Source: a virus
Strand: one strand, 5' to 3'
DNA: 64,000 nucleotides
Virus record (IMG/VR): IMGVR_UViG_3300021420_000016
Coordinates: 64,001 to 128,000 of that record
Under the pieces are notes generated by a model that was not told the origin of the DNA, did no database searches, and worked only from the letters and a program-made list of their open reading frames with translations. The translations under genes and the position numbers were made by a program. Positions 1,965 to 18,963 of the stretch are shown here, in pieces (the stretch's first letter is position 1; each line of letters opens with the position of its first letter).

Positions 1965-2418
1965 ATGGTGGATCAACTGCCGGAGGTGTCCGAGGACGCC
2001 GTTCAGCGGGCAGCCGAGGTGATGCTGCGACAGTACGACCGCCGGTATTCCTCCGGGCATCTCACGTGGCGAGACTTCGCCGATGACGCCCGCGAGATCC
2101 TCACCGTCGCCCTGGCTCCGCCTCCCGGGGAATTGGAGCCGGCCGAGCGACCGGCGTTCGAGGGGGAGGTTCCCGGCGGCTGTGAACTGGTGGCTGTTCC
2201 GGACCCGAACTGGCGGCTGGTGAGCGGGAAGCGCTGCCGGCGCCAGGAGGCTTTCCATCGGGTGTGCGTTAACCCGGCCGTGGCTGAGTTCTGTCGTGCC
2301 CATGGTCATTCATTGGTGGGGGTACTGCCCGGCGCACATGTATGGCCGGTGGGTCGAGAACGGCCGGGTCATGCACTGGACGCTGCGCGAGAAAGGCCCC
2401 AGCCCTCGCGGGGGGTGA
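1965..2418 (+). pseudogene. phage protein frameshifted by a CATT duplication
   Basis: CATTCATT at 2307-2314; removing one copy gives ...HGHWWGYCPAHMYGRW... ending at TGA 2418. Confidence 0.5.
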
Positions 2419-2462
2419 GGGGCTATCCTGTCATACCTTACGGGCGAAGGAGGTGAGCGGTC

Positions 2463-4571: not shown

Positions 4572-4901
4572 ATGCGCGGTGCGGAGCCGACCAAGCCGAT
4601 TGAATTAGCGCGGGTGGCCGACCAGCTCACCTTTCTCTACGTCGAGCACGCCCGGGTGGACCGCGACGTCAATGCCGTGACCGTTCAGCAGGTCTCCGGG
4701 ATCGCTCATGTTCCGGTGGCCACCCTCGCTGCGTTACTACTGGGCCCGGGAACCCGGATCACCCACGCCGCGATCACGCTGCTTGCCGGAAGCGGATGTA
4801 GCGTGCTGTGGGCCGGCGAACAAGGCGTGCGCCTTTATGCGGGTGCGGCTCGGCGTCGTCAAGGGCGGCGGGTCGGCGCTGATGGTGATCGCCGACCATG
4901 A
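4572..4901 (+). pseudogene. cas1: type I-E cas1, 5' third only
   Basis: LTFLYVEHARVDRD.NAVT...VPVATLAALLLGPGTRITHAA...LWAGEQGVRLYA; homology stops near 4845, so the catalytic domain is absent. Confidence 0.9.
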
Positions 4902-6632: not shown

Positions 6633-8315
6633 GGCCCGTTCGGCCGATGGCAACAGCCACGGCCAGGTCGCGTCGTGTGAGGCCTCCAGAATGGGGATCA
6701 GGCGGAAGGCGTTGTCGGTAAGCCCGCCCATGGTGTGCCGGTTCCCGCCACCCGAAGGCAGTCCCCCAGTCTTGTACCCGCCGAAGTTCCACAGGTACAC
6801 CGGCACGTGCCGCGGGATCAGGTCATCAATCCTGGTCGACGGCATGCCGCCCGCGAAGTGACAGTTCGACGGCAGGTACCCCGGGGAGGTCTGCTCGTCG
6901 GTGACGATCACCACCCGGTCGTGGTAACCGGCGCGGAAATGCTGCCGCACCGCCGTGGGGATGTCGGTCCCCCACTGCCCCGTGGTGAGCCGCTCCACCA
7001 GCTTGAGCACCGACTCGCCCTGGGTGAACCGCACGGCGGCGTTCACGCCGCGGCCGGTGTCCTGGCCCCAGAACTCCACCAGGTCGGCGTGGGCGGCGCG
7101 CAGGGCGATGGCTGCGGCGAACACGGCCGCCCCGTCGGCCCAGGACATGTCGGAGTGCTCGGACATGTTCTGGTGCCACATCGACGGCGACCGGTCCACC
7201 AGCACCAGCGTGCGGCCCGCCAGCGCGGGCACGTTCGCCAGCGAGTGGCCGAGGCCCTGCTCCAGCGGCCAGCCCCACCGCAGCGACGGGGCGTGCCGGT
7301 AGGCGGCGAGGAACCGGAACGGGAACAGCCGCGACCTGGCCACCCGGTCGGGGTCAGCCAGTTTCGCCGCGACCTCCGCCGCCACCGAGTCCGGGACGCC
7401 GGCCTGGTCGAAGTTCCGCAGGTTCTTCGCCAGCGCGCCCAGGCCCATCATCGGGATCGCCGCAGTCCACGCCTCGCGGGTCATCGGGCCCTGCAGCCAC
7501 CCGGCGAGGGCCTCCCACGTCATCCCCGCATCACGCAGATCCTGAGTTGCCTCCGGCCGGTTCAGCCACGCACGCCGTGCACCCTCCGGCATGGCCATCA
7601 GGGCGTGCCGGCGGCGGATCGTCGCCAGCACCTCCGGGACCGGGTTGCCCCGGTCGTGGCGCCGCTCGATCGCATACCGGTAAAGTGCTTCGCGCCACGT
7701 GCCGTACGCCCTGCGGTGATACCGCGGGTTGACGAGTTCGATAACGTCACCGAATCGCACTGCCGCCTCGTCGGTGTCGTACTTCAGCAGGGCGAACTCG
7801 TTGTAGAGGCGGTGGATCCCGTCGGCGAGGCCCCGCTTGAGCCCGATCGGCATCTTCCGGCCGTAGTTCGCCAGCCAGTAGGCGGTCAGCTCCCCCGGCT
7901 CGTCGGCGCGCTGCAGCACCGAGTCCACCACCGGCCGCGGGAACGTGGCGACGCCCACTTCCCGGCCCGTGCCGGCCTCGTCGCGGCGCGCCCAGGTGAA
8001 CTCCGCCGCGCCGATCACCGGCGCCAGGCGCAGGTTCCCGTCGCCGCGCAGCCACCCGAGCAGGCCGGCCGTCCATGCGGGGTCGGCGGCCGCCATCTCG
8101 CGGACGAGGTGACGGTAGCGCTTCACCCGGGCGTCGCGGCCCTCGTGGAACGCCCTCTCCCCCGGCAGGTTGCACGCCGCCAGGAGGAACAACTCGGACT
8201 GACCCTCGCGGGCATACCCGGGGGCACCCAAGGCGGTACGGCCGGACGGCCCCGGGCCGCTCACGACCGGGCTGGACGCGGCGGCACGGACAGGACCGCG
8301 GTTGAACTTGCTCAT
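6627..8315 (-). CDS. rsr: Ro60/Rsr-like TROVE + vWA RNA-binding protein
   Basis: VLQRADEPGE, MTWEAL, KNLRNFDQAG, SRLFPFRFLAAY; MIDAS VDRSPSM and IVTDEQ; start at MSKFN with upstream RBS. Confidence 0.92.
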   Translation of the reverse strand: MSKFNRGPVRAAASSPVVSGPGPSGRTALGAPGYAREGQSELFLLAACNLPGERAFHEGRDARVKRYRHLVREMAAADPAWTAGLLGWLRGDGNLRLAPVIGAAEFTWARRDEAGTGREVGVATFPRPVVDSVLQRADEPGELTAYWLANYGRKMPIGLKRGLADGIHRLYNEFALLKYDTDEAAVRFGDVIELVNPRYHRRAYGTWREALYRYAIERRHDRGNPVPEVLATIRRRHALMAMPEGARRAWLNRPEATQDLRDAGMTWEALAGWLQGPMTREAWTAAIPMMGLGALAKNLRNFDQAGVPDSVAAEVAAKLADPDRVARSRLFPFRFLAAYRHAPSLRWGWPLEQGLGHSLANVPALAGRTLVLVDRSPSMWHQNMSEHSDMSWADGAAVFAAAIALRAAHADLVEFWGQDTGRGVNAAVRFTQGESVLKLVERLTTGQWGTDIPTAVRQHFRAGYHDRVVIVTDEQTSPGYLPSNCHFAGGMPSTRIDDLIPRHVPVYLWNFGGYKTGGLPSGGGNRHTMGGLTDNAFRLIPILEASHDATWPWLLPSAERAA

Positions 8316-8358
8316 CCTCGCACGCCCCCTTTCGCTGGGGCTCCAGGCGGGAGAGGTA

Positions 8359-8524
8359 ACCTTCATGAATGACATGCCCGACAACGAATCGGCCCACGGG
8401 ACATAAGCGCTCTGCCAGTTGAGCTACGCCCCCAAAGTGGAGGCGACAGGACTTGAACCTGTAACCACTCGATCCACAATCGAAGTACCGCGAACCTGCA
8501 CTTCGGGCATGCCTTCATGAAGTT
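8359..8524 (-). ncRNA. Y RNA 1 (YrlA-like, permuted tRNA-like domain)
   Basis: CCCGAAGTGCAGG...GCCGATTCGTTGTCGGG closing stem; internal order T-arm, closed acceptor-like hairpin, D-arm. Confidence 0.85.
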
Positions 8525-8529
8525 GTACC

Positions 8530-8672
8530 CCCCCCCGACAACGAATCGGCGACGGTAACCGGGGCCGGATTCGAACCGGCGGCCTCCGCCCTTCCGGGCG
8601 GCGCTCTACCAACTGAGCTACCTCGCAAAATGGGTTGGCTGCGAGAAGTAACCGTTGCCTGCACTTCGGGGA
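8530..8672 (-). ncRNA. Y RNA 2 (D-arm, GGAA-capped arm, T-arm)
   Basis: Same terminal motifs; TAGCTCAGTTGGTAGAGC, CCGCCC-GGAA-GGGCGG, GGTTCGAATCC. Confidence 0.8.
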
Positions 8673-8697
8673 GAAGTGCTTTATTTAGTTTATGTCC

Positions 8698-8806
8698 TTC
8701 CCGACAACGGATCGGCGGCGGCTGCGCGGGATTCGAACCCGCAACCTTCAGCTACTGTGACTGATTTCGATCCAATTCGAAGTAGCCGTCTCCTGCACTT
8801 CGGGAA
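8698..8806 (-). ncRNA. Y RNA 3 (T-arm only)
   Basis: Same terminal motifs plus TACTTCG; GCGGGTTCGAATCCCGC. Confidence 0.78.
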
Positions 8807-8889
8807 AGTATTCCCAGAGCCTAGCGAACCGGCAATGCGTGGCGCATCCCGTTTTCGCGTGACCCTGATCACAGCGCGAGCACCCTTTG

Positions 8890-8961
8890 AGTCGGCGGCG
8901 GGAATTGAACCCGCGTGCGCAGCTTTGCAGGCTGCTACCTCTGCCACTCGGCCACGCCGAC
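8890..8961 (-). tRNA. tRNA-Cys(GCA)
   Basis: cloverleaf, loop CT-GCA-AA. Confidence 0.92.
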
Positions 8962-8963
8962 AC

Positions 8964-9039
8964 GGTGAGCGAGGCGGGATTCGAACCCGCAGCCTTCTTC
9001 TTAGGAGGAAGTTGCTCCATCCCGTTGAGCTACCCGCTC
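8964..9039 (-). tRNA. tRNA-Arg(CCT)
   Basis: loop CT-CCT-AA. Confidence 0.9.
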
Positions 9040-9108
9040 GCGGGAACGCCTGGCGACCGCTATGCGTGATCCTTTACCCCCACCGTTTGAAGCTGGGTCC
9101 AGGCGTTC

Positions 9109-9182
9109 GGCGTCCCCGGCGTGACTCGAACACGCGCGCACGGCTCCGGAGGCCACAGCTCTATCCACTGAGCTACGGGGAC
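9109..9182 (-). tRNA. tRNA-Arg(CCG)
   Basis: loop CT-CCG-GA. Confidence 0.9.
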
Positions 9183-9183
9183 T

Positions 9184-9268
9184 TGGTGGCAGGTCCAGGG
9201 TTCGAACCTGGGTAGGCTGAGCCGGCGGTTTTACAGACCGCTCCCTTTGGCCGCTCGGGCAACCTGCC
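9184..9268 (-). tRNA. tRNA-Tyr(GTA)
   Basis: loop CT-GTA-AA, long variable arm, CCA. Confidence 0.95.
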
Positions 9269-9269
9269 T

Positions 9270-9347
9270 TGGGGAGCCCGGCCGGATTTGAACCGGCGAC
9301 GACACGGACCACAACCGTGTGTTCTGCCTGGCTGAACTACAGGCTCC
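9270..9347 (-). tRNA. tRNA-His(GTG)
   Basis: loop TT-GTG-GT, G-1, CCA. Confidence 0.93.
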
Positions 9348-9348
9348 A

Positions 9349-9423
9349 TGGTGGGTGATGATGGGATCGAACCATCGGCCTCTGTCGTGTGAAGGCAGCG
9401 CTCTGCCACTGAGCTAAACACCC
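9349..9423 (-). tRNA. tRNA-Val(CAC)
   Basis: loop TT-CAC-AC, CCA. Confidence 0.9.
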
Positions 9424-9511
9424 CTGCCAGGTCTTGATTTAAGTTCCGGGAATGCTTATTGTTTCCTTGCTACTAAAACCCTTAGCAAGTAGCACGGAAA
9501 GGGACACCTCA

Positions 9512-9655
9512 ATGGGCAGGAACAAAATCGTTGCAACTTGCGCCGCAATCTTTTTCGCGGCCGGGATGGCCGCCCCGGTTATCGCCGCAGCCACACCCGC
9601 CGTGCACGCCGTGGCAGACGGCAGTGGCGGCCCCGACATGTACCACCACAGCTGA
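9512..9655 (+). CDS. 47-aa secreted peptide precursor
   Basis: RBS GGAAAGGGA; signal-peptide-like N-terminus, short polar tail GSGGPDMYHHS. Confidence 0.65.
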   Translation: MGRNKIVATCAAIFFAAGMAAPVIAAATPAVHAVADGSGGPDMYHHS

Positions 9656-9716
9656 CCGTCCCCCAGGCCGTCTGCGGTCCCGAGCCCCCGGCGGGGCCGC
9701 AGACCCCTAAAATAAG

Positions 9717-9789
9717 TGCGCTCGGAGGGACTCGAACCCCCAACAAACTGCTCCGTAGGCAGTTGCTCTATCCGTTGAGCTACGGGCGC
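9717..9789 (-). tRNA. tRNA-Arg(ACG)
   Basis: loop CT-ACG-GA. Confidence 0.93.
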
Positions 9790-9800
9790 ATGGTATCGCG

Positions 9801-9873
9801 TGGGCGTACCTGGGATCGAACCAGGGATCCTCTGCCGTGTCGAGACAGCGCTCTGCCGCTGAGCTACACGCCC
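9801..9873 (-). tRNA. tRNA-Val(GAC), C33
   Basis: loop TC-GAC-AC. Confidence 0.88.
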
Positions 9874-10382
9874 ACCGTTACTTCCAGGCCAATCTCGGCG
9901 GCCTGCCCAGCGATCTTCTCCGGCAGTTCCCAGCCGAGCCGGGCCAGCCGCTGCACTGCCTGCCGGGCACCATTCCCGGCCCGGCCCGCTAGGTTCACGT
10001 TCTCCAGTGCCTCGTTCATCATGTCCTCCATCCCCCGGTCGGTCACCATGAACGGAATCACGTTGAACAGCACGACCGCCGCCGCAGCGCCGGTGAGAGT
10101 CCACCGGCCGGTGGATGGCTGGACGCCGATCTCGCAATGGATATGCGCCTCGCCGCAATGCTCGGCGCAGCCCCGCTTGTCCCACTCCTTGCCCGGACGG
10201 GGAGGCCGCGGCTCCGCGTTGCTGTCGGTGAGCCGGCACAACTCCCTGATCACGCTCAGGTAAGAAGAGTCGACCCGCAGCACCAGTTGCGGCGTCGCCC
10301 GGGTGAGGTTGTCCTTCCGGTGGATGCGGCCCTGCATGTCCAAGATGGCCGCCATCCAGGCCAGCTTCTCGGCAGGGACCAT
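9864..10382 (-). CDS. LAGLIDADG-like homing endonuclease-related protein (degenerate motif)
   Basis: LAWMAAILDMQGRI...LVLRV...VIRELCRL. Confidence 0.55.
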   Translation of the reverse strand: MVPAEKLAWMAAILDMQGRIHRKDNLTRATPQLVLRVDSSYLSVIRELCRLTDSNAEPRPPRPGKEWDKRGCAEHCGEAHIHCEIGVQPSTGRWTLTGAAAAVVLFNVIPFMVTDRGMEDMMNEALENVNLAGRAGNGARQAVQRLARLGWELPEKIAGQAAEIGLEVTVGV

Positions 10383-10408
10383 AAACCTCAGCCTAGCGCC
10401 GTGATACG

Positions 10409-10483
10409 CGGGACAGGCGGGATTCGAACCCGCGGCCTCCACCTTGACAGGGTGGCGAGCACTCCTGACTGCTCCACAGTCCC
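10409..10483 (-). tRNA. tRNA-Asp(GTC)
   Basis: loop CT-GTC-AA. Confidence 0.93.
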
Positions 10484-10598
10484 ATGATTCCGGTCGCGGC
10501 CCCGCAGGCTATCGCGCCTCACCTGCGGTCAGCGGACGGCGAACCCGCCTATGTTTGCCCACCGGAACTGCACCAGCCAGATGCAGGTGTTGGAAAAC

Positions 10599-10673
10599 GG
10601 CTCCCGAGGAAGGGCTCGAACCTTCAACCTGCCGGTTAACAGCCGGACGCTCTGCCGATTGAGCTACCCGGGA
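10599..10673 (-). tRNA. tRNA-Asn(GTT)
   Basis: loop CT-GTT-AA. Confidence 0.93.
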
Positions 10674-10814
10674 ATGAGAAAGAAGCCCCGCCTACACGGA
10701 GCGCCCCGACGGCACTCCCGCCCTTATGCTGCCGTCGCAGCCCCATGGGCACTTGGTCCGCGGCCCGCGCGCCCTGCCTTCGGGTCAAGCCCGTACATCC
10801 TCAGCGGAACTTCG

Positions 10815-10888
10815 TAGCGGGGGGCGGATTTGAACCGCCGTCCTCTGGGTTATGAGCCCAGCGAGCTACCGAACTGCTCCACCCCGCG
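10815..10888 (-). tRNA. tRNA-fMet(CAT)
   Basis: 5' CGCGGGG, C1 unpaired, GGG/CCC anticodon stem. Confidence 0.92.
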
Positions 10889-10976
10889 TCGCATGTGAGA
10901 TTTCCCGGCCACCTGGCCAACTCAGGTACCCACAACGGCCTCTCTACGGCTGACACTGATCACGCTACCACATTCG

Positions 10977-11052
10977 TGGTGGCTCCAGTCAGATTCGAAC
11001 TGACGCCGTCTCCTTGAAAGGGAGGTGACCTGGGCCGCTAGTCGATGGAGTC
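10977..11052 (-). tRNA. tRNA-Glu(TTC)
   Basis: loop CT-TTC-AA, CCA. Confidence 0.88.
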
Positions 11053-11053
11053 G

Positions 11054-11126
11054 TATCCCGGGAGGGATTCGAACCCCCGCCGCCACCTTGAGAGAGTGGC
11101 ATCCTAGGCCGCTAGACGACCGGGAC
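11054..11126 (-). tRNA. tRNA-Glu(CTC)
   Basis: loop CT-CTC-AA. Confidence 0.92.
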
Positions 11127-11138
11127 ATGTACTTTACG

Positions 11139-11211
11139 TGCGCCGCCGCGGACTCGAACCGCGAGCCGTCTCCTTAGAGGGGAGCCGCTCTATCCATTGA
11201 GCTAGCGGCGC
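11139..11211 (-). tRNA. tRNA-Arg(TCT), C33
   Basis: loop CC-TCT-AA, A20 in D-loop. Confidence 0.85.
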
Positions 11212-11371
11212 TGGCCGCGTCTCCGATTTCCCGGCGGACGGCTTGCTTCTCGCGTGCACGCTGAGCGCGCCGGCCGATCTCCTTCATACCGGGCTTGTAA
11301 CCCGGGTCGTGACCGGGGCAGCACCAATTCTGGTCGTGGGCACTGCGGGCCCGGCCGAGCATCCTTGCCAT
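11174..11371 (-). CDS. small basic Cys-containing protein, similar to N-terminus of 55181..55636
   Basis: MARMLGR..CC..RRAQRAREK vs MAKMLGR..CRC..RRARKRAEA; upstream GGAGG. Confidence 0.5.
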   Translation of the reverse strand: MARMLGRARSAHDQNWCCPGHDPGYKPGMKEIGRRAQRAREKQAVRREIGDAASAASSMDRAAPL

Positions 11372-11394
11372 GGGGCGCATCCTCCGGTTAGGGG

Positions 11395-11895
11395 CTATGC
11401 CGCTTCGCGCAGAGTGCGCATTCCGCGAGTGCCAGGCGTCTCACCCCGGCGAACCCGGCCATCGTATTTGGCTTGGCGGCATAGACCGCAGCGGCATCCG
11501 CGACCGTATTCCGCTTGAGAACCGTGGCCCTTTCGCTGAAGTTGCGGCCACGGGCGTTCGACACGCTGCTCGGCTAGGTCAGTGACCGTTTTCCGGTGAT
11601 GATGCGCGCCACATAGAACTTGGCACCCTTCAAGCTCCTCAAGGAACTTCACTTCTGCGATCGACCATAGTCTCGCTAGGTCGATCTCTTTGGCGCGCCA
11701 ATCAATGTGGTCGATCTCCAGGTCGGCGGTGCCGCCGCACTCGGCACAGGCGCCGCCTAGCAGCGCGATGGCTCGATCCCGTCGTTCGTGGTAGCGCCGG
11801 AGCATGTAATCGCGCATGTAGCCGTTGTAGCAGTCGCGACATCTCTTGCCGTTGGCATACTCCCTGACGGGCCTGCCGCACTGGTTGCAACACAT
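11395..11895 (-). CDS. HNH endonuclease
   Basis: CAECG..LEIDHID...CQVLCGAHH; TATAAT 6 nt before ATG (leaderless). Confidence 0.88.
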   Translation of the reverse strand: MCCNQCGRPVREYANGKRCRDCYNGYMRDYMLRRYHERRDRAIALLGGACAECGGTADLEIDHIDWRAKEIDLARLWSIAEVKFLEELEGCQVLCGAHHHRKTVTDLAEQRVERPWPQLQRKGHGSQAEYGRGCRCGLCRQAKYDGRVRRGETPGTRGMRTLREAA

Positions 11896-11910
11896 GTTCG
11901 AATTATATGC

Positions 11911-11986
11911 GGTGCCCCGCCTCGGATTCGAACCGAGAACCCGCGGATTAAAAGTCCGCTGCTCTAAGCCGTTGAGCTAGCAGGGC
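11911..11986 (-). tRNA. tRNA-Lys(TTT)
   Basis: loop CT-TTT-AA. Confidence 0.93.
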
Positions 11987-12043
11987 GTGGGGCTGGGTAT
12001 TCGTACGACCTGTTTCTCGCGCATCGTTTCCTCCTTTCCGGGG

Positions 12044-12120
12044 GGTAGGCCGGGCGGGGGTCGAACCCGCACATCTTCCGCTTATAAGGCGGCTGCCGTC
12101 ACCCTGTTGGCCACCGGCCT
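12044..12120 (-). tRNA. tRNA-Ile(TAT)
   Basis: loop CT-TAT-AA, discriminator A. Confidence 0.85.
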
Positions 12121-12126
12121 CCTGAG

Positions 12127-12198
12127 TAGCGAGAGGGGATTCTGCCACCCCGGCCTCTCCGTTATGGGCGGAGCGCTCTCCTTCTGAGCTATCCCGCT
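12127..12198 (-). tRNA. tRNA(CAT) Met/Ile2, C33, aberrant T-loop
   Basis: loop CC-CAT-AA; T-arm GGGGTGGCAGAATCCCC lacks TTC. Confidence 0.7.
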
Positions 12199-12213
12199 GG
12201 GTCCCCGTGGGGG

Positions 12214-12289
12214 TGGTGGGCCTAGGTGCTTTTGGGACACCGACCTCCCGGTTATCAGCCGGACGCTCTTACCTCTGAGCTACAGGCCC
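12214..12289 (-). tRNA. tRNA-Ile(GAT), aberrant T-loop
   Basis: loop CT-GAT-AA; T-arm GGTGTCCCAAAAGCACC; CCA. Confidence 0.75.
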
Positions 12290-12290
12290 T

Positions 12291-12382
12291 TGGAGGAGGG
12301 TGCGAGATTCGAACTCGCGAGACGAGTCCCCCCGTCTAGCCGTTTTCGAGACGGTGCCGTAGGCCACTCCGGTCAACCCTCC
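12291..12382 (-). tRNA. tRNA-Ser(CGA)
   Basis: loop CT-CGA-AA, long variable arm, CCA. Confidence 0.88.
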
Positions 12383-12387
12383 ACAAG

Positions 12388-12476
12388 CGGAGTGACAAGG
12401 ATTCGAACCTTGGAGGGGCTTGCGCCCCAACGGCGTTAGCAGCGCCGCGCCATAGGCCAGACTAGGCGACCACCCC
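12388..12476 (-). tRNA. tRNA-Ser(GCT)
   Basis: loop CT-GCT-AA, long variable arm. Confidence 0.92.
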
Positions 12477-12554
12477 ATTGTGCGGTGGGCGGGGACAGGC
12501 GGACCCGCTGGTACGCGCAGACCAGCATGGCCGTGATCTCCCCGCCTCACTGCG

Positions 12555-12630
12555 TAGCGCTCGTCGGATTCGAACCGACACTGTCGCGGACCTGAACCGC
12601 GCGCCTCCTACCATGTTGGGCTAGAGCGCC
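12555..12630 (-). tRNA. tRNA-Leu(CAG), short variable region
   Basis: loop TT-CAG-GT. Confidence 0.85.
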
Positions 12631-12735
12631 TGGCCAGGGATCAGGCCGGTGCCGTCTGGCTCACGCTGCCTTCCCGGCACCGCCGGCTCCGCAGTCAGCG
12701 TGATGGGGATAACCGTGTGGCGCCTGATCCCTTAG

Positions 12736-12808
12736 AGCGGACGGCCGGGATCGAACCGGCGACTTCAACCTTGGCAAGGTTGCGCTCTGCCAACTGAGCC
12801 ACGCCCGC
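12736..12808 (-). tRNA. tRNA-Gly(GCC)
   Basis: loop TT-GCC-AA. Confidence 0.95.
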
Positions 12809-12818
12809 ATGTATTTCG

Positions 12819-12890
12819 AGCGGAAGACGGGGATCGAACCCGCAACCCCGACCTTGGGAAGGTCGTGCTCTGCCATTGAGCCACTTCCGC
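12819..12890 (-). tRNA. tRNA-Gly(CCC)
   Basis: loop TT-CCC-AA. Confidence 0.94.
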
Positions 12891-12891
12891 A

Positions 12892-12967
12892 TGGAGCCCG
12901 ACCGGGGAATTGAACCCCGCCTACGGCCTTACCAAGGCCGGGTGCTTACCGCTATCACTAGCCGGGC
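12892..12967 (-). tRNA. tRNA-Thr(GGT)
   Basis: loop TT-GGT-AA, CCA. Confidence 0.9.
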
Positions 12968-12971
12968 GAAG

Positions 12972-13042
12972 CTGGGGGAGCTGGGGTCGAACCAACGTTC
13001 CAGGGACCAAAGCCCCGTGTCCTGCCTTTAGACGATCCCCCA
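12972..13042 (-). tRNA. tRNA-Gln(TTG)
   Basis: loop CT-TTG-GT. Confidence 0.9.
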
Positions 13043-13043
13043 T

Positions 13044-13121
13044 TGGAGCCGGCCATCGGGCTTGAACCGATCACCTGCCGCTTACAGGGCGGCTGCTCTG
13101 CCTGCGATGAGCTAGGCCGGC
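13044..13121 (-). tRNA. tRNA-Thr(TGT), C33
   Basis: loop CC-TGT-AA, CCA. Confidence 0.88.
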
Positions 13122-13187
13122 GTGATCCTGGCAGGCACCGCAGGCGACCTTTGGCGCCGCAGTGAGGCCTGCCCTGCCAAGGAATCG

Positions 13188-13262
13188 TGTGCTCGGAGGG
13201 ACTTGAACCCTCAACATCCGGCACCTCGGGCCGACCTCTCTGCCACATTGGAGTACGAGCAC
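13188..13262 (-). tRNA. tRNA-Leu(GAG), C33, short variable region
   Basis: loop CC-GAG-GT. Confidence 0.85.
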
Positions 13263-13335
13263 TCAGTCAGTTCTTAGGCCAGCCGTATGGTGGGTATGAC
13301 TCATCCCAACGATACCGATCGCAGGGAGCGCCCCC

Positions 13336-13572
13336 GTGGATGAGCCCAATCTCACTCTCCCCGAAGCCCAGGAGCAACTACCGGCGATCTGCCAGCGGTT
13401 CGCTGCCGACCCAGGAACCCGGGATGCCGTTGTAGTGACAGACGCCGATGGCCCAGTGGCCGTGATCATCCCCTGGCGGAGGTACCGGGCCTGGGCCGGC
13501 CTCGGGGGGGAGACCCTGATGCCCGTTCACCAAAACGGCCGCCTGATAGCGGTTGTCCGGGACTGCGGCTGA
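13336..13572 (+). CDS. Phd/YefM-like orphan antitoxin-fold protein
   Basis: LTLPEAQEQLPAIC...AVVVT..GPVAVIIP. Confidence 0.5.
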   Translation: MDEPNLTLPEAQEQLPAICQRFAADPGTRDAVVVTDADGPVAVIIPWRRYRAWAGLGGETLMPVHQNGRLIAVVRDCG

Positions 13573-13575
13573 CTG

Positions 13576-13650
13576 GGAGCCCGATGCCGGGGTCGAACCG
13601 GCGACCTCCGCGGTACGAAGGCGGCGCTCTACCGACTGAGCTAACCGGGC
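13576..13650 (-). tRNA. tRNA-Thr(CGT)
   Basis: loop TT-CGT-AC, C31-C39 mismatch. Confidence 0.85.
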
Positions 13651-13802
13651 GTGGCTGCCCCGCGTACGCCGGTTCGGCGGGGCGCACCAGGGCGGGAGAA
13701 TCCGGGGCCGTGCGATCAGCCGCCCAAGATCGCCTCGATCTTCCATGTTCCCGGTGATCAACTCCGGGTGGGCCCCTGCGCCAGTGCCGGCCAGTTACCT
13801 TC

Positions 13803-14477
13803 TTAGGGATTCCTGGCCGCTGATGCAACCGGCGCTGCTCCCGGAGCTGGGGTCGAACCAACTACGGGACTTACCGCTTCCGGGGCTGGACTCGAACCAG
13901 CGAGGACAGGGGCCAGAACCCTGCTGGGGACGCCGCCGCCCCACCCGGAATCAAGTCGGCCCGAACGGATAGCCGTACGGATCCGATGACAATTAGCGCA
14001 AACTATGTCACACTTCGCGATCTCAGCAAGGATTCTGCTCCATGACCAGCGGGTAAGCACGGCACTTATGTTGCCCAGCTTGTCATCCCCATCCCTGTGG
14101 TCGTAATCCATAACACAAGGGGGGAACCGGCCACCGCAATCAGCGCACGGGACGTCTTTCAATGCGTCGAGTCGCTGCCGGTTCGCCTCGTATCGTTGCC
14201 GGTTGCGGTCCAGATATACCTGCTTGTTGTCGTTGTACCACCGTTGCTTCGCCGCCCGCTGTGCTTCTTTGTTACGGCCGGCACCGGTCCCTTTCTTCCA
14301 CCGGACCCCGAGAAAATGTGAAGTATCCAGGCCCAGCTCTGCGGCTACCGCCCTGATTCTGTGGTATGAACTACCTCCGTCAGCCTTAAGTCCAAGCGCT
14401 CGGGCTACCTGGCCCCAAGTCGTGGATTGAGTGATGGCATCAGCTAGATCGCCGTCGGACCATGACCTGGTTCTCAT
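13803..14477 (-). CDS. HNH endonuclease inserted in tRNA-Gln
   Basis: PCADCG...MDYDHRD...KCDIVCANCHRIRT; TATACT 7 nt before ATG. Confidence 0.88.
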   Translation of the reverse strand: MRTRSWSDGDLADAITQSTTWGQVARALGLKADGGSSYHRIRAVAAELGLDTSHFLGVRWKKGTGAGRNKEAQRAAKQRWYNDNKQVYLDRNRQRYEANRQRLDALKDVPCADCGGRFPPCVMDYDHRDGDDKLGNISAVLTRWSWSRILAEIAKCDIVCANCHRIRTAIRSGRLDSGWGGGVPSRVLAPVLAGSSPAPEAVSPVVGSTPAPGAAPVASAARNP

Positions 14478-14561
14478 GCCTGCCAGTATACGGCAAGGTG
14501 TAGGGCTCTAGTCGCTTCGTCTGATCCAGAGTCAGGTGTCCTGCCATTGGACGATCCGGGA
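13838..14561 (-). pseudogene. split tRNA-Gln(CTG): 5' part 14520-14561, 3' part 13838-13866
   Basis: TCCCGGA acceptor strand pairs with TCCGGGA about 650 bp downstream; halves join into a complete cloverleaf. Confidence 0.8.
13877..13950 (-). tRNA. tRNA-Gln(CTG), atypical D-arm, inside the HNH insertion
   Basis: TTCCGGG/CCCGGAA acceptor, loop TT-CTG-GC, GGTTCGAGTCC. Confidence 0.7.
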
Positions 14562-14565
14562 TTAG

Positions 14566-14647
14566 TGCGGGACGAGGGATTTGAACCCTCACGCCCTCTC
14601 GGGCACACGGACTTGAGCCGTGCGTGTCTGCGTTTCACCAGCCCCGC
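14566..14647 (-). tRNA. tRNA-Leu(CAA)
   Basis: loop CT-CAA-GT, long variable arm. Confidence 0.9.
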
Positions 14648-14653
14648 TGGCCT

Positions 14654-15442
14654 TCAAAACGCCTTCCGCATTTCCTCGATCAGGGCCAGCGATTGCGGCG
14701 CGTTCAGGGCTATGCTTTGCAGCCAATCCGCTTGCGCGCGGAACCGGTCCAGGTCTGCGGTGTGGTCCTGGTACCTGTCTTCTCTCTCGGAGAAGACCAT
14801 CGGGGGCAGTTCGCCGGCGAAATCCAGGATCGTGAAGTTCGGCGCCGGGGAGGAGATCAGCGCCGCGCGGAACGGGACTACCCGCACGATGGCGCCTTCG
14901 CCGGCAAGGTTCAGGATGTGCCCGAGCTGGTCGGCCATGATGTCGGCGCCGGGGTGGCGCTGCAGGACCGCCTCATCCAGGAGGAACGTTGTGGGGATCT
15001 TCCCCACCAGTACCTGCCGGGCTTCACGCACCTGCGGGTACGGCCGGCCGGCGGCCTGGTCGTAGTTTGCGGTGCGCAGCAGCGCGGGGATTACGTCGCG
15101 GGCGAGGCAGACGAGGGACTCGGCGTTTTGCTCCAGGCTGAGGTACAGGACCGACCGGTCGTTGCTGATCGGCTCTATCCTCCACGGGTCTTTCTCCCGG
15201 CCGCGTCTCACGGCGGCAAGGAGCTCCGCCGCGGTGGCCTGGTCGGCGCCGTAGACGAGGCACATGGAGCGGACTGTGCGCCCGTCGGCGAGCCGGTCGC
15301 CGGTTTCGGTGCGGCTGACCGTGGCCATGGAGCACAGCAGTTCGGCTGCGGCCTGCTCGATCGTCATGCCCGCTGCGGTGCGCAGTTCGCGCAGGCGGGC
15401 GGCGAGTTTCATCTGGGCTACGGCGGGGCTGTCACTTGCCAT
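14654..15442 (-). CDS. XRE HTH + DUF5753-type regulator
   Basis: LAARLRELRTAAGMTIEQAA..SMATVSRTETG; IPALLRTANY; LDEAVL. Confidence 0.82.
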   Translation of the reverse strand: MASDSPAVAQMKLAARLRELRTAAGMTIEQAAAELLCSMATVSRTETGDRLADGRTVRSMCLVYGADQATAAELLAAVRRGREKDPWRIEPISNDRSVLYLSLEQNAESLVCLARDVIPALLRTANYDQAAGRPYPQVREARQVLVGKIPTTFLLDEAVLQRHPGADIMADQLGHILNLAGEGAIVRVVPFRAALISSPAPNFTILDFAGELPPMVFSEREDRYQDHTADLDRFRAQADWLQSIALNAPQSLALIEEMRKAF

Positions 15443-15487
15443 GTGGCACATATACCCTGCACCGGGCATTTTGCACGTAACCTATCG

Positions 15488-15559
15488 TGCGCCGCCAGGG
15501 GATCGAACCCCGGACCCGCCGATTAAGAGTCGGCTGCTCTACCACTGAGCTAGCAGCGC
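15488..15559 (-). tRNA. tRNA-Lys(CTT)
   Basis: loop CT-CTT-AA. Confidence 0.95.
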
Positions 15560-15560
15560 C

Positions 15561-15634
15561 TGGAGCGGGTGAAGGGGATCGAACCCTCATGACCAGCTTG
15601 GAGGGCTGGGGCTCTGCCATTGAGCTACGCCCGC
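15561..15634 (-). tRNA. tRNA-Gly(TCC), C33
   Basis: loop CC-TCC-AA, CCA. Confidence 0.9.
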
Positions 15635-15643
15635 ATTGACTTT

Positions 15644-15720
15644 TGGTGGCCACTCTCCGAGTCGAACGGAGGCCCTCTCACTTTTCAGGCGAGCGCTCAT
15701 ACCAACTGAGCTAAGCGGCC
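15644..15720 (-). tRNA. tRNA-Phe(GAA)
   Basis: loop CT-GAA-AA, CCA. Confidence 0.92.
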
Positions 15721-15724
15721 ATAG

Positions 15725-15796
15725 TCGGGATGGTCCGAACCGAACGGACGCCCTTCTGCTCCCAAAGCAGACGCTCTTCCACTGAGCTACACCCCG
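15725..15796 (-). tRNA. tRNA-Pro(TGG)
   Basis: loop TT-TGG-GA. Confidence 0.88.
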
Positions 15797-15801
15797 AATC
15801 G

Positions 15802-15876
15802 TCGGGACAGACCGATTTGAACGGCCGGCCTCCGGCTCCCCGAGCCGGCGCTCTAACCAAGCTGAGCTATGCCCCG
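15802..15876 (-). tRNA. tRNA-Pro(GGG), C33
   Basis: loop TC-GGG-GA. Confidence 0.88.
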
Positions 15877-16062
15877 GTTACGCCACGTGTTTCCAGGTGC
15901 GCCCACACCGAATATCGCTGATCGTGGCCTTGTGAACTCCCAGCAGTTTGGCAAGGGCAATCCCCCGACGCATGAGCCGTTCGCGGCCAGCCACTTGGCT
16001 CTCCTGGCAGCGACCCACTCCCGCATGTACTTTCGCTGCCGCTCAGGATCGGCATAAGGCAT
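15853..16062 (-). pseudogene. HNH endonuclease N-terminal remnant
   Basis: MPYADPERQRKYMREWVAARRAKWL..GSCV resembles the start of 11395..11895; no HNH core. Confidence 0.55.
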
Positions 16063-16104
16063 GCGAACGGTATATCGCAGTTAGCCCTTTGACCTGTACT
16101 CTTG

Positions 16105-16182
16105 TGGTCGGGATGGGGTGATTCGAACACCCGGCCTCCTCGTCCCGAACGAGGCGCGCTGACCAAGCTGCGCCACATCCCG
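16105..16182 (-). tRNA. tRNA-Pro(CGG)
   Basis: loop TT-CGG-GA, CCA. Confidence 0.94.
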
Positions 16183-16414
16183 TTTGCCGGTTCCCTCCCA
16201 GGGCGTGCCGCCAGTGCAGGCAGAGAACGTTCCGTCCCCTTGCCGGAAAGAGGGACCCAGGCCCCTCGCGCGTCCGGGCGGGGAGACTTCCCCGGGGGCG
16301 GACTGTGATGCGCATTGCACGGCGGTCCCTGGTTGCCGGATCAGCCCTCCGCAGTTTGCTGTGTGGTACGTCACTTCTGCGAGCGATATCCGGCCCGGCT
16401 AGCGGGGACCGTAG

Positions 16415-16487
16415 TGGAGTTACAGGGACTCGAACCCTGGGCCTCCGCGTTGCGGGCGCGGCGCTCTCCCGGCTGAGCTATAACCCC
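16415..16487 (-). tRNA. tRNA-Ala(CGC), C33
   Basis: G3:U70, loop CC-CGC-AA. Confidence 0.9.
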
Positions 16488-16585
16488 TCAAGCGTGGTGG
16501 CCTCCGGTTGTTTGTCCCTTATTTAGCAGGGAGAGCCACGTATTCCCCGGAGGTTGCCCCCGGCGCCAGTCCGGGACCCCCCTTG

Positions 16586-16658
16586 TGGAGCTACGCGGAT
16601 TCGAACCGCGGACCCTCTCGATGCCATCGAGATGCTCTGCCAACTGAGCTATAACCCC
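16586..16658 (-). tRNA. tRNA-Ala(GGC)
   Basis: G3:U70, loop AT-GGC-AT. Confidence 0.93.
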
Positions 16659-16845
16659 ATCTGGGCGGTTAGAACTGCCGCTCCCCCACTGGCCCAGAGT
16701 GGGCCGGCGGGATCATCGACGGGCAGAGACCACCCACGCGGGACTTATGGCCGCCCGCCTTTTCGTTTGGTGCTCACGCTATGCAAGTTTCAACCACCGG
16801 GCGGGTTCACCAGCCTTACCTCTCGGTCGCGCTGGTGCCGCTTCG

Positions 16846-16918
16846 CCCGGACGGAGGGACTCGAACCCTCAACCAACGGTTTTGGAGACCGTCACTCTTC
16901 CAATTGAGCTACGTCCGA
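16846..16918 (-). tRNA. tRNA-Trp(CCA)
   Basis: loop CT-CCA-AA. Confidence 0.92.
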
Positions 16919-16938
16919 CTGCTTGGCTTGTACCTACG

Positions 16939-16976
16939 AAAAAAACCGCCCCTTTCCGGCTTCCCGGGGGGCGGTT
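16939..16976 (-). terminator. intrinsic terminator (attenuator) just upstream of the first tRNA
   Basis: AACCGCCCC..CCGG-GAAG-CCGG..GGGGCGG followed by T7. Confidence 0.85.
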
Positions 16977-16993
16977 CCTGGTTCGCTTGCCTG

Positions 16994-17116
16994 CTATCCA
17001 GAAACCTCCCTGCCGGGGGTGCGCCCGTTGCCGTCGCTCAGGGCAGCCGCCGGCTGCGAGAACGGGTACGCGGATGCGTGCCGTTCGTCGCGCTCGATGA
17101 CTTGCCAGAGTTTCAC
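16994..17116 (-). CDS. putative 40-aa attenuation leader peptide
   Basis: GGAAGG RBS, GTG start; MKLWQVIERDERHASAYPFSQPAAALSDGNGRTPGREVSG; 3' end complementary to terminator left arm. Confidence 0.7.
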   Translation of the reverse strand: MKLWQVIERDERHASAYPFSQPAAALSDGNGRTPGREVSG

Positions 17117-17150
17117 GGGTACTGCCTTCCGGTTGGTGCTGCTGGTATCA

Positions 17151-17180
17151 AGGGTACGGGGTGCAGTGGGCTGTGCGCAA
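17151..17180 (-). promoter_or_regulatory. sigma70/HrdB-like promoter of the tRNA/Y RNA/Ro unit
   Basis: TTGCGC-N18-TACCCT. Confidence 0.6.
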
Positions 17181-17203
17181 CGGGTATTGCCGGACGTGAT
17201 CAC

Positions 17204-17247
17204 AAAGAAGCCGGGCCTCCCGCACGCCCAGTGCGGGAAGCCCGGCC
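17204..17247 (-). terminator. terminator insulating the tRNA operon from the upstream gene
   Basis: GCCGGGCTTCCCGCAC..GTGCGGGAGGCCCGGC then TTCTTT. Confidence 0.75.
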
Positions 17248-17261
17248 GCCTTAGCGGGGAC

Positions 17262-18098
17262 TTACCGCCACCTGGGCAGCTTCCTGCTGCGGCGCCCCTG
17301 GTTGTACGCGTCGGTGACGAGTTCGGCGACGCTGTTGGCGACGGAGCCGCCACGGACGCGCTTGAGGCCGCTGGACTTGTACAGCAGTTCCTGGGGGCCG
17401 CCTTCGAGGTCCATGAGCTGCTGCACCATGTGGTCGGTGTCGATGGCCAAGCCGTGCCGGACGAACAGTGCGCCGATGCCGCCGATGATCGCCGAGTCGC
17501 CGGCTTTGAGGTCGTGCTGCCACGCCTGCACGATCGTCTGGAGGGTGCTTGCGAGGACGAACTGCGGGTCGTCCGGATGGTGGCGCTCGTCGTCCTTCCA
17601 CAGTCTCTCCAGCGTCGAGACCGCCGTGATCACGCCCGGCCCGGGGACGACGTCGACCTTCCAGCCTGCCAGTTCGGCGGTCTTAAGGATCGCGCAGGCG
17701 ACCGGGTCGCCTTGGGTTACCCGTGCCTTGAACCGGTGGCCCGGGGTGACTGCCCGGCCGGAGTTCAGCAGGACGAACAGGCCGGCTTCCTGGGCGAGGT
17801 CGAGGCCGGTGTAGATTTCGCAGAGAATGCCGGGCCCATAGTCGCAGGCCTGGCAGAGGGCGATCCGGTTCTGGCCGTCCACGACGACGAAGGTCCCGTC
17901 GGCGCGCTGCGACACTGCGGGGATGCCCAGGGCGTCTGGGCGGAACCTTTTGACGCGGGCCTGTACCCAGTTCGGGTCCACGTCGCGCGTGTTGACGCGC
18001 TGGTCCCGGGTGATTTTATCGATCGGGACAAGCGCGACCCGGTCGGGGGCGGGCAGTCCGGTGCTGTTAGTGGTTGCTGGTGCCGTCGCCGTAGCCAT
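17262..18098 (-). CDS. ParB/Srx-like (DUF6551-type) protein
   Basis: LGIPAVSQRADGTFVVVDGQNR. Confidence 0.7.
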   Translation of the reverse strand: MATATAPATTNSTGLPAPDRVALVPIDKITRDQRVNTRDVDPNWVQARVKRFRPDALGIPAVSQRADGTFVVVDGQNRIALCQACDYGPGILCEIYTGLDLAQEAGLFVLLNSGRAVTPGHRFKARVTQGDPVACAILKTAELAGWKVDVVPGPGVITAVSTLERLWKDDERHHPDDPQFVLASTLQTIVQAWQHDLKAGDSAIIGGIGALFVRHGLAIDTDHMVQQLMDLEGGPQELLYKSSGLKRVRGGSVANSVAELVTDAYNQGRRSRKLPRWR

Positions 18099-18963
18099 AG
18101 CGCCTGAGTTCCTTTCTGAACCGTTGAAGTACTCCGAGTGTCTCGTCGGCTCTGTGTCCCCACCGCTTGATGACATCGCTGGGGATCCCTGTGTCCAGGG
18201 GCATGGCCGTGGACAGGCCGGCGATGATTCCCCCGAGGGCGGCGAGGGCCGCGCTGACCGAATCTTCCTGGCTGCGGCTGGGCAGCCTGCGGGGGCCGTG
18301 GGATGGTGCCGGTGGCCACTCGCTGGCCCCGGTCCGGTACAGCCGCTGCGCAGCCTTCAGGTCACTTGGCCGCCTGATGAGGGCGAGGGCCTCGCGAGCC
18401 CGCGCCTGCTCTTCTGCGGGAATGCGCTGCTGGCCGCCGCCCCGGAGCGGGCGGTAACCGCGGGCGGCGAGCACCAGTTCCCGCGCGGCGCCGTATTGGC
18501 TGCCGTTTAGCCCGAGTGCCCTCGCCATCTCTTCCCGCCGCAGGTCGCGGCGGCCGGCCGTGGCCGTGGATCCGTCCCTGGGCCACCATTGCAGTTCCCG
18601 GAGCGCGAGATCTATGCCGATCGCCTCGGCAACAGTGAGTGGGTGCACGCATTGCACGTTCTGCGCGTCGCGGCGGATCCGGTCTAGTGCCTCTTGCACG
18701 GTGGTGATGGTTTCGGCGGGGATGCGCCGCCAGCCGAGCCGGCGGCAGGCTTCCAGTCGCCGGCGGCCAAGAATAAGCCGGCCGGTGGGGCCGGCGGTGA
18801 TGGGATAGTGGAGCCCTTCGGCGGCGATGGAGGCCATCAGGGGGCCCAGGTCTCCCAGGTTCCGCCCGGCGCGTTCACCTAGGTCGATCGAGCCGATGTC
18901 CATCTCATCCTCCCCGGGGAGGAGAGTGGCGTGCCCGGGGGCGGGAGACGGTGGTGCTCTCAA
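18067..18963 (-). CDS. ParB N-terminal-domain protein with HTH
   Basis: LMASIAAEGLHYPI...LILGRRRLEACRRLGW; start TTG 18963 (strong RBS) or ATG 18903. Confidence 0.75.
   Translation of the reverse strand: MRAPPSPAPGHATLLPGEDEMDIGSIDLGERAGRNLGDLGPLMASIAAEGLHYPITAGPTGRLILGRRRLEACRRLGWRRIPAETITTVQEALDRIRRDAQNVQCVHPLTVAEAIGIDLALRELQWWPRDGSTATAGRRDLRREEMARALGLNGSQYGAARELVLAARGYRPLRGGGQQRIPAEEQARAREALALIRRPSDLKAAQRLYRTGASEWPPAPSHGPRRLPSRSQEDSVSAALAALGGIIAGLSTAMPLDTGIPSDVIKRWGHRADETLGVLQRFRKELRRYGYGDGTSNH

Follow-up and report, generated by a model that had tools for sequence, protein, structure and literature searches.

The 64,000-nucleotide stretch of DNA analysed here (the window; bases 64001-128000 of the 154-kb virus record IMGVR_UViG_3300021420_000016, which has ~69% G+C and a completeness of 98% according to CheckV) carries, on its minus strand, a short leader in front of a large array of tRNA genes. 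Our preferred interpretation, to which we assign a probability of about one half, is that this leader acts as a ribosome-mediated transcription attenuator between a host-type promoter and the phage tRNA array. Most likely, the phage would thereby raise the output of its tRNA genes whenever translation of the leader is not completed by ribosomes. This interpretation draws on the parts of the element, their conservation, an open reading frame (ORF) that is kept without constraint on its peptide, two alternative RNA folds with a dependence on masking, and transcription of the leader in nature. Because the element is conserved, the observation is confirmed and goes far beyond chance.

An upstream terminator, a promoter, a ribosome-binding site (RBS), a 40-codon ORF and a terminator 20 nt before tRNA-Trp had been proposed in the initial annotation, and all of these elements were found in place. 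Listed in the direction of transcription, the region comprises the following features:

17209-17247, minus strand: intrinsic terminator of the upstream ParB-like gene (17 pairs, 13 of them G-C, with a T-rich tail)
17151-17180, minus strand: predicted promoter (-35 TTGCGC at 17180-17175, 18-nt spacer, -10 TACCCT at 17156-17151)
17132, minus strand: 5' end of RNA-library contigs X4 and X11, ~12 nt downstream of the expected start site
17125-17130, minus strand: RBS GGAAGG, 8 nt before the GTG; its purine-rich AAGG core is present in all variants
16994-17116, minus strand: leader ORF (GTG at 17116 plus 39 codons, TAG at 16996-16994; 40 sense codons)
17056-17089, minus strand: hairpin inside the ORF (CGAACGG / CCGUUC plus an apical stem of 4-5 bp)
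16998-17016, minus strand: region 2 (CCGG..GGGAGGTTTCTGG), which spans the last ORF codons and forms the antiterminator's 5' strand
16964-16981, minus strand: region 3, the shared strand (CCAGGAACCGCCCCCCGG), which pairs with region 2 or region 4
16939-16976, minus strand: terminator hairpin plus U7 (9-bp lower stem, AAA bulge, 4-bp upper stem, GAAG loop)
16845-16918, minus strand: tRNA-Trp(CCA), the first array gene, 20 nt beyond the U tract and first after the leader in every variant
8557-16844, minus strand: remaining tRNA genes of the array (37 further ARAGORN calls and tRNA-Ile(GAT)), with embedded protein genes, running towards the Ro gene

An intrinsic terminator is thus located between the leader ORF and tRNA-Trp, as expected of an attenuator. 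Its lower stem is formed by 16976-16968 and 16952-16944 and surrounds an inner CCGG/CCGG stem, while U7 occupies 16945-16939. Complementarity of the last codons to the left arm of this terminator, which had also been claimed, was confirmed for GGGAGGTTTCTGG (17010-16998) and CCAGGAACCGCCC (16981-16969). The resulting GGGAGGTTTCTGG:CCAGGAACCGCCC helix consists of 11 Watson-Crick pairs, one G-U pair and one A-G mismatch, with a CCGG:CCGG extension. At the other end of the unit, the terminator at 17209-17247, equivalents of which are present in relatives L002 and L007, appears to insulate the leader from upstream transcription. The predicted promoter keeps a TTGCG -35 and a TAnnnT -10 sequence (TACCCT or TACAGT) in all six variants of the leader described below, with a conserved GGAATAsC just upstream. 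A promoter scan of 8000-18500 yielded no sigma-70 consensus site, and a promoter between the terminator and tRNA-Trp was rejected, as there is neither room nor a match for it. On this strand of the 154-kb genome, only one other TTGCG-N17-19-TAnnnT site was found (~39030-38995, minus strand). It reads TTGCGCAC-N16-TATCCT, has the extended word TTGCGCAC in common with the leader promoter and may belong with it to one promoter class.

Six leader variants were available for comparison: the window, L002, L007/L008, L011/L012/L030/L049, L013/L015/L039, and L029/L042. Relatives L002, L007/L008 and L011/L012 were reached via homologues of the ParB-like protein, and L013/L015/L039, L029/L042 and L030/L049 were found in soil metagenomes by a pattern of two invariant words. 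This second pattern scan, of metagenome and genome contigs, returned 51 loci, among which seven metagenome loci were true leaders; all 11 genome contigs and the remaining metagenome matches were chance matches inside genes. The first metagenome pattern gave no match, pattern scans of IMG/VR gave nothing or chance matches (a tail-fibre repeat in L006 and a coding region in L066), and IMG/VR scans with the ParB-like and Ro proteins as single queries gave no match. Four loci with homologues of the ParB-like protein (L003, L004, L010, L064) were without a leader, and a fifth (L065) was too short. Comparison of 16800-17400 with 50,697 phage and 72,556 plasmid records showed DNA similarity for the tRNA-Trp part only. 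A covariance model of the leader (R1), whose searches scored only part of the candidates, so that negatives do not prove absence, identified only the leader itself in the 154-kb genome, nothing in genomes of Streptomyces, Mycobacterium and Saccharomonospora or in 151 Streptomyces-family genomes, and no match in the Streptomyces phage Alone3 or four other loci.

Every variant has the promoter, the RBS, the GTG, a frame of 36-40 codons, a stop at one alignment position, the hairpin and then tRNA-Trp, and the order of the tRNA genes beyond the leader (Ala, Ala, Pro, Pro, Pro, Phe, Gly, Lys ...) is common to the variants. Over the leader, the variants are 69-89% identical. Leader DNA is about twice as conserved as the ParB-like gene (72-90% vs ~64% identity). 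In L013, the gene directly upstream of the leader (1310-2509, minus strand) encodes not the ParB-like protein but a 399-amino-acid flavin adenine dinucleotide (FAD)-dependent oxidoreductase (Pfam DAO, E 7e-44), from which it follows that the leader is linked to the array and not to its upstream neighbour. An HNH endonuclease gene is located further upstream in the L013 clade.

Several properties of the ORF point to selection for an open frame. Its G+C content by codon position (0.68/0.54/0.80) is gene-like for this genome. All five insertion or deletion events inside the ORF across the six variants involve 3 or 6 nt, i.e., multiples of three, for which a one-in-three null gives a probability of ~0.004; outside the ORF (5' untranslated region (UTR), post-stop loop, terminator loop, and tail), 7 of 12 events are not multiples of three. 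The position of the stop is kept although one variant changes TAG to TAA. Pairwise differences at codon positions 1, 2 and 3 amount to 133:138:89, with the third position varying least, whereas the ParB-like gene of the same genomes shows a normal coding pattern (0.31/0.30/0.46 differences per site). Since indels are multiples of three, RBS, GTG and stop are kept and third-position differences are lowest, the frame seems to be held open without peptide constraint: from these comparisons, the ORF looks translated, with a frame that must stay open and a peptide that is itself unselected.

The same data bear on the alternative that the leader is an ordinary small phage protein gene (36-40 amino acids) with its own promoter and terminator, in which the complementarity would be a by-product of a G-rich coding sequence and a C-rich stem. 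The gene-like G+C profile, the RBS and the conserved ORF would suit such a gene, as would the observation that shuffled upstream sequences pair on average with ~5.6 of the 9 arm nucleotides. We nevertheless regard it as very improbable. The substitution pattern, which is the reverse of that expected from purifying selection on a protein, speaks against a small protein with a function of its own; the compensatory changes in the RNA bring different residues into the peptide; capture of the terminator arm by upstream sequence is 2-3 standard deviations (sd) stronger than in shuffles; and a phmmer search of 1.84 billion representatives called no homologues of the peptide, its two matches being long repetitive proteins that are not homologous.

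The leader peptide's amino-acid composition had been described as unusually diverse. Its count of 16 amino acids in the first 19 codons was correct. To arrive at 19 out of 20 amino acids, the GTG initiator has to be included as Met; elongator tRNAs read only 18 (no Cys, no internal Met). Diversity proved moderately unusual, ranking in the top 5.5% of 39-residue windows of the phage's proteins (P ~0.008 against dinucleotide shuffles). Elongator-read kinds number 18-19 in four variants (P 0.0007-0.008) and 16 in the other two (P 0.11-0.18). Leaders before related arrays were thus found in five relatives, with ordinary diversity in two variants and thin compensatory support. No variant contains codon runs, 16-19 elongator-read amino acids being spread over 35-39 residues, and the tandem codons of the trp, his and leu attenuators are absent. 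Alanine (5 of 40 residues) is at the genome background of 14%, and enrichment in rare codons is mild only (codon adaptation index at the 4th-17th percentile). A Trp-specific attenuator, suggested by a conserved TGG at codon 4 and by tRNA-Trp as the first gene, was rejected: this single codon is ~100 nt from the terminator and its GG pairs in a long helix.

RNA folding was analysed on the six sequences, with covariation judged from an RNAalifold consensus, pair counts and, for the long and 2:3 helices, 500 shuffles each. RNAalifold returned three structures: a long helix of irregular shape that begins at the start codon and extends to about codon 31, the helix between regions 2 and 3 (2:3) around the stop, and the terminator. 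The long helix spans ~17119 to ~17024, has the conserved hairpin 17089-17056 as its tip, and is 93.8% paired (98% of cells in the hairpin). Compensatory exchanges occur at two pairs of the apical stem (ACGC/GCGU, ACAC/GUGU, GGCG/CGCC), and 1 of 500 shuffles attained the covariation score of the long helix as a whole. This covarying hairpin sits at the place expected of a pause hairpin and is a candidate pause or synchronising hairpin. Pairing reaches 95.7% in the 2:3 helix, where one exchange affects both sides (U:A in the window, C:G elsewhere) and another goes from G-U to A-U; in the terminator it reaches 93.6%. Covariation thus gives good support to the internal hairpin and weak support to the switch helices, whose segments are simply very conserved. 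Region 2 is altered in L011 (CTGG in place of CTTCTGG), and a 4-nt insertion (AGCC) in region 3 makes up for this by recreating a 7-pair helix.

Energy calculations indicated that the two conformers compete. Local folds of the window gave -29.9 kcal/mol for the antiterminator and -27.0 kcal/mol for the terminator, and across variants the forced conformers of one segment differed by -1.8 to +4.2 kcal/mol. For RNA made before region 4, the minimum-free-energy (MFE) structure was the 2:3 hairpin in all six variants, as expected of an antiterminator; when the last codons, the stop and 9 further nt were masked to mimic a terminating ribosome, it was the terminator, again in 6/6. The two conformers that had been postulated were thus recovered as competing, near iso-energetic folds in each variant, with an outcome that depends on masking of region 2. 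In all variants, region 2 is made up of the last 5-7 codons, and the hairpin loop contains the stop, which precedes region 3 by 11-18 nt; the modelled geometry would thus allow the position of the ribosome to select the fold. In the window, capture of the left terminator arm by upstream sequence had a free-energy difference (ddG) of -14.7, compared with -6.2 ± 2.8 in shuffles, none of 400 of which reached it. Over the variants, capture by the 60 nt upstream was 2-3 sd above dinucleotide shuffles (P 0 to 0.06 per variant); since shuffles, too, pair ~5.6 of 9 arm nucleotides, some competition is expected from composition. Pairing of the 5' UTR with region 2, seen in a single-sequence MFE structure, was discarded, as the segment is deleted in L013/L029 and not conserved. 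No conserved partner that would sequester region 2 in an untranslated ORF was found in the six variants, which implies that, unlike in trp, the default without ribosomes should be read-through.

In the scheme that we infer from these data for actual translation, termination and read-through, their coupling and the physiological signal, RNA polymerase would start ~7 nt past TACCCT and transcribe a short, translated ORF, the last five to seven codons of which (region 2) would be available to the complementary 5' arm of the terminator (region 3), with the stop codon in the intervening loop. A ribosome that keeps pace and occupies the last codons or the stop would bury region 2, whereupon regions 3 and 4 would pair and transcription would end in the U tract, 20 nt short of tRNA-Trp. 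If no ribosome were present, or if it lagged behind or had come to a halt with codons 1 to ~29 in its P site, regions 2 and 3 would pair once both had been made; this would block the lower terminator stem, and the polymerase would continue into tRNA-Trp and the array. The phage tRNAs would then restore decoding, which would provide a negative feedback that matches tRNA supply to translational demand or damage.

The attenuator design put forward in the initial annotation gains strength from its conservation in six diverged lineages, the kept frame, start and stop, and the bistable fold; stalling at any codon as the selected signal did not gain in the same way. A ribosome with its P site at codons 1-29 is predicted to leave region 2 free, and hungry codons 2-30 of the window comprise 17 amino-acid kinds. 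A response to failure of 'almost any' tRNA is plausible but weaker than the attenuator reading itself; footprint geometry gives ~17 kinds, with codons 2 to ~30 qualifying. Only tentatively do we suggest that a leader with nearly one codon per kind reads the whole decoding system, opens a full replacement set of tRNAs and then shuts again. The signals for such a readout might be anticodon nuclease cleavage of host tRNA, tRNA depletion late in infection, and ribosome poisons, a set that we put forward with equal reserve. Control by the leader of the entire 10-kb stretch down to the Y RNAs and Ro, as originally claimed, goes further than the data: protein genes and further terminator-like sites lie within it.

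Contigs from three soil metatranscriptome libraries, all of low depth, could be placed on the stretch. Two of these, X4 and X11, derive from different studies and both end at 17132 on the minus strand, where the X4 contig runs on into adapter letters (AGATCGGAA). The interval 17133-17260 is without contigs from RNA runs, whereas DNA run X2 crosses it in one contig. This pattern would fit a start at the predicted promoter with loss of the first dozen nucleotides in library construction. One RNA-library contig (16822-17132) bridges leader, terminator, tRNA-Trp and spacer, while another library contains the leader alone (16957-17132). These contigs hint only weakly at a genuine 5' end and at the existence of terminated as well as read-through transcripts; their 3' ends at 16957/16964 and the uncovered stretches were given no reading.

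Several observations weigh against attenuation by ribosomes. The comparison includes only six variants, all related by descent. A long U tract is present only in the window, while the five relatives have 3-5 U interrupted by C or A. The single both-sided change in the 2:3 helix leaves it with a covariation score that 68 of 500 shuffles reached, and changes in the terminator are one-sided only, with no compensatory pair. The consensus fold holds the 2:3 helix together with a shortened terminator, so that exclusivity concerns only the lower 3-8 pairs. With respect to translation, the frame length is not significant, as a stop-free frame of this length occurs in 39-75% of shuffles, and the peptide has no homologues in the 1.8 billion representatives. 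High amino-acid diversity is restricted to four of the six variants, and most amino acids are present once, which implies low sensitivity to partial shortage. The RNA-library contigs neither prove transcript ends nor exclude DNA carry-over. Finally, nucleotide conservation, including invariant 9-10-mers, exceeds the needs of a simple attenuator, which hints at an additional or different function at the RNA level.

Part of this evidence would be explained if the ~190-nt transcript were a structured non-coding RNA (a phage small RNA (sRNA), or else the tRNA precursor's 5' leader or a module for its processing) with an incidental frame. In this case, the 3' hairpin would be a plain terminator or protective end, and read-through into the array would be constitutive leakage. 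A structured RNA accounts for nucleotide conservation far above that of the neighbouring gene, for third positions that are no freer than first or second ones, for the invariant 9-10-mers and covarying hairpin within the ORF, for the library holding the leader alone, and for a frame that chance often leaves open; the second conserved structured element 3' of tRNA-Trp, described below, also places it in a region rich in RNA elements. It does not account for indels that are multiples of three in 5/5 events inside the ORF and mixed outside, or for the conserved RBS, GTG and stop position, TAG to TAA change included. Nor would a plain terminator need near iso-energetic conformers and a nascent antiterminator in 6/6 variants. 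No Rfam family matched the leader at gathering thresholds. On balance, we consider this explanation unlikely.

In an attenuator with a non-ribosomal sensor, the long hairpin would be bound by a phage or host protein (e.g., Ro or an RNA-binding regulator), by a small ligand or by an uncharged tRNA, and this binding would decide between the two folds. Such a sensor fits the bistable 2:3 / 3:4 folds equally well, and a conserved, covarying long helix with invariant segments would be unnecessary for a purely ribosome-driven switch. However, this mechanism leaves conservation of frame, start and stop unexplained, and the location of region 2 in the last codons, with the stop in the hairpin loop, is in every variant the geometry to be expected of ribosome masking. 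Moreover, Rfam searches of the leader up to E = 10 found nothing relevant, T-box, riboswitch and other cis-regulatory families included; the best match, an 11.6-bit hit to a Burkholderia sRNA, was discarded as chance. We therefore judge a non-ribosomal sensor to be improbable, and retain ribosome-mediated attenuation as the preferred reading.

ARAGORN detected 38 tRNA genes on the minus strand between 16918 and 8557. Another, tRNA-Ile(GAT) (12289-12217, minus strand), has a T arm of unusual form and was found by Rfam but missed by ARAGORN; it brings the array to 39 genes, which cover all 20 amino acids, and supplies a reader for the ATC codon of the leader. Embedded in the array on the same strand is a gene for a regulator with HTH_31 and DUF5753 domains (14654-15469, minus strand), a type common in Streptomyces. 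The TROVE/Ro gene (8384-6627, minus strand) is located downstream of the array, and the ParB-like DUF6551 gene (18176-17262, minus strand) upstream of the leader. The host is probably an actinomycete, as Ro-like proteins from phages of Streptomyces, Gordonia and Arthrobacter are 35-45% identical to this Ro protein. None of the sequenced phages or plasmids proved to be closely related.

A second conserved, apparently structured element directly follows tRNA-Trp in 6/6 variants. The outer stem, which shows covariation (GACGG:CCGUC, GCAC:GUGC, GCGG:CCGC), encloses a variable hairpin that bears a GAAy bulge, and is followed by the conserved word TTGAnA...CAGyGTGAGCACC and another hairpin. It is covered by RNA-library contigs and had no Rfam match. 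A role of this element, or of the TTGACA-like word 3' of tRNA-Trp, as a promoter was rejected, as no conserved -10 sequence follows. In the L013/L029 clade, ARAGORN called a tRNA with a four-base anticodon (gaag) where the window has tRNA-Leu(GAG), and the tRNA-Trp copy of L015 has an extra C that yields 'ccaa'. These calls could reflect eight-membered anticodon loops or assembly errors. The loci concerned are:

16690-16844, minus strand, window: second element
7244-7330, L002: second element
4575-4650, L008: second element
~800-922, minus strand, L013: second element
423-520, L029: second element
1350-1426 and 2214-2286, L015: gaag / ccaa tRNA loci
1205-1281, L029: gaag tRNA locus
1521-1597, L039: gaag tRNA locus

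Large phage tRNA arrays are currently viewed as a means to counter host defences that target tRNAs and to offset mismatched codon usage, and to our knowledge their expression is largely unknown. If the proposed mechanism is correct, transcription of the array would be coupled to the success of translation, which would make the tRNA counter-measure inducible and self-limiting and would add tRNA genes to the amino-acid and resistance genes under ribosome-mediated attenuation. In the literature searched, no leader-ORF attenuator was reported before tRNA genes or in a phage tRNA array. On the tentative reading of a leader that senses the whole decoding system, it would be the first attenuator known to control tRNA genes, as well as a general sensor of translational damage carried by a virus. 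The element itself is small (~240 bp), while its presumed carrier is an uncultured soil actinophage; it could represent a compact, portable sensor of 'translation health' for high-GC Gram-positive hosts.

Known systems resemble the leader to different degrees. The Streptomyces phage Alone3 (OR725492.1) likewise has a large tRNA array beside a Ro-like gene, whose product is 43% identical to the Ro protein of the window, but its array is preceded, ~40 nt before the first tRNA, by a consensus TTGACA-N17-TATAAT promoter (L070 6270-6335), with no leader ORF or terminator. This difference implies that the leader is a feature of the window's clade and that control of the array differs between actinophage clades. 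In the trn operon of Anabaena sp. PCC 7120, a mobile array of >20 tRNA genes is silent or low by default and induced >100-fold by translational stress, and it is associated with an RNA-repair gene, rtcB, as the phage array is with Ro/Y RNA (PMC8421152). Induction in Anabaena acts via promoter repeats, without leader control; the terms 'leader', 'attenuat' and 'terminator' are absent from PMC8421152. No repeats of the Anabaena L-array type were evident by eye in 17130-17190 of the window, and no formal repeat search was made on the six promoters.

Classical leader-peptide attenuators (trpL, hisL, leuL, thrL, pheL/pheM) use runs of one amino acid, as the initial annotation had rightly stated. 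They have in common with the phage leader a promoter, a short ORF, an internal hairpin, an antiterminator and a terminator, together with a stop so placed that the terminating ribosome blocks the antiterminator and a distance from stop to terminator of ~50 nt. In contrast to them, the phage leader has no run of codons for one amino acid, is followed by tRNA genes and lacks a clear 1:2 'anti-antiterminator', so that an untranslated leader is predicted to allow read-through rather than super-attenuation. In antibiotic-responsive ribosome-mediated attenuators such as rli53-lmo0919 and toiL, the upstream ORF (uORF) of topAI, stalling at many positions of the leader ORF switches the fold and turns on a rescue function, as proposed here; unlike the phage leader, these control resistance or toxin genes in cellular genomes, some via Rho or translation, and none of this kind has been reported before tRNA genes or on a phage (PMC11550727, PMC12121999).

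Closest in function is the whiB7/wblC uORF attenuator (Lee, Lee & Roe 2022, as cited in 10.1101/2023.06.02.543512 and PMC11550727), which belongs to the likely host phylum, Actinobacteria, and also responds to translation as a whole. Efficient translation of the uORF leads to termination, while antibiotics and depletion of amino acids or of tRNA/aminoacyl-tRNA synthetases (aaRS) lead to read-through (10.1101/2023.06.02.543512, PMC11550727). The former source adds that the amino-acid set of the uORF decides which starvations are sensed, with that of M. smegmatis including all but Cys (10.1101/2023.06.02.543512). The phage leader has the same combination of a mixed-content uORF in a 5' leader, a Rho-independent terminator and a competing antiterminator in a high-GC actinobacterial setting, and both its peptide and the M. 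smegmatis uORF are without Cys. It differs in that it is not alanine-rich (5 Ala of 40, compared with 25-40% in whiB7 uORFs), and in that positive autoregulation is absent, the expected feedback being negative. Sensing of general translation stress by a diverse-codon uORF is already known from whiB7/wblC, and the principle is not new. By its sequence, the phage leader appears to work like a whiB7/wblC uORF without being homologous to it or a member of that family, and it controls tRNA genes instead of a transcription factor.

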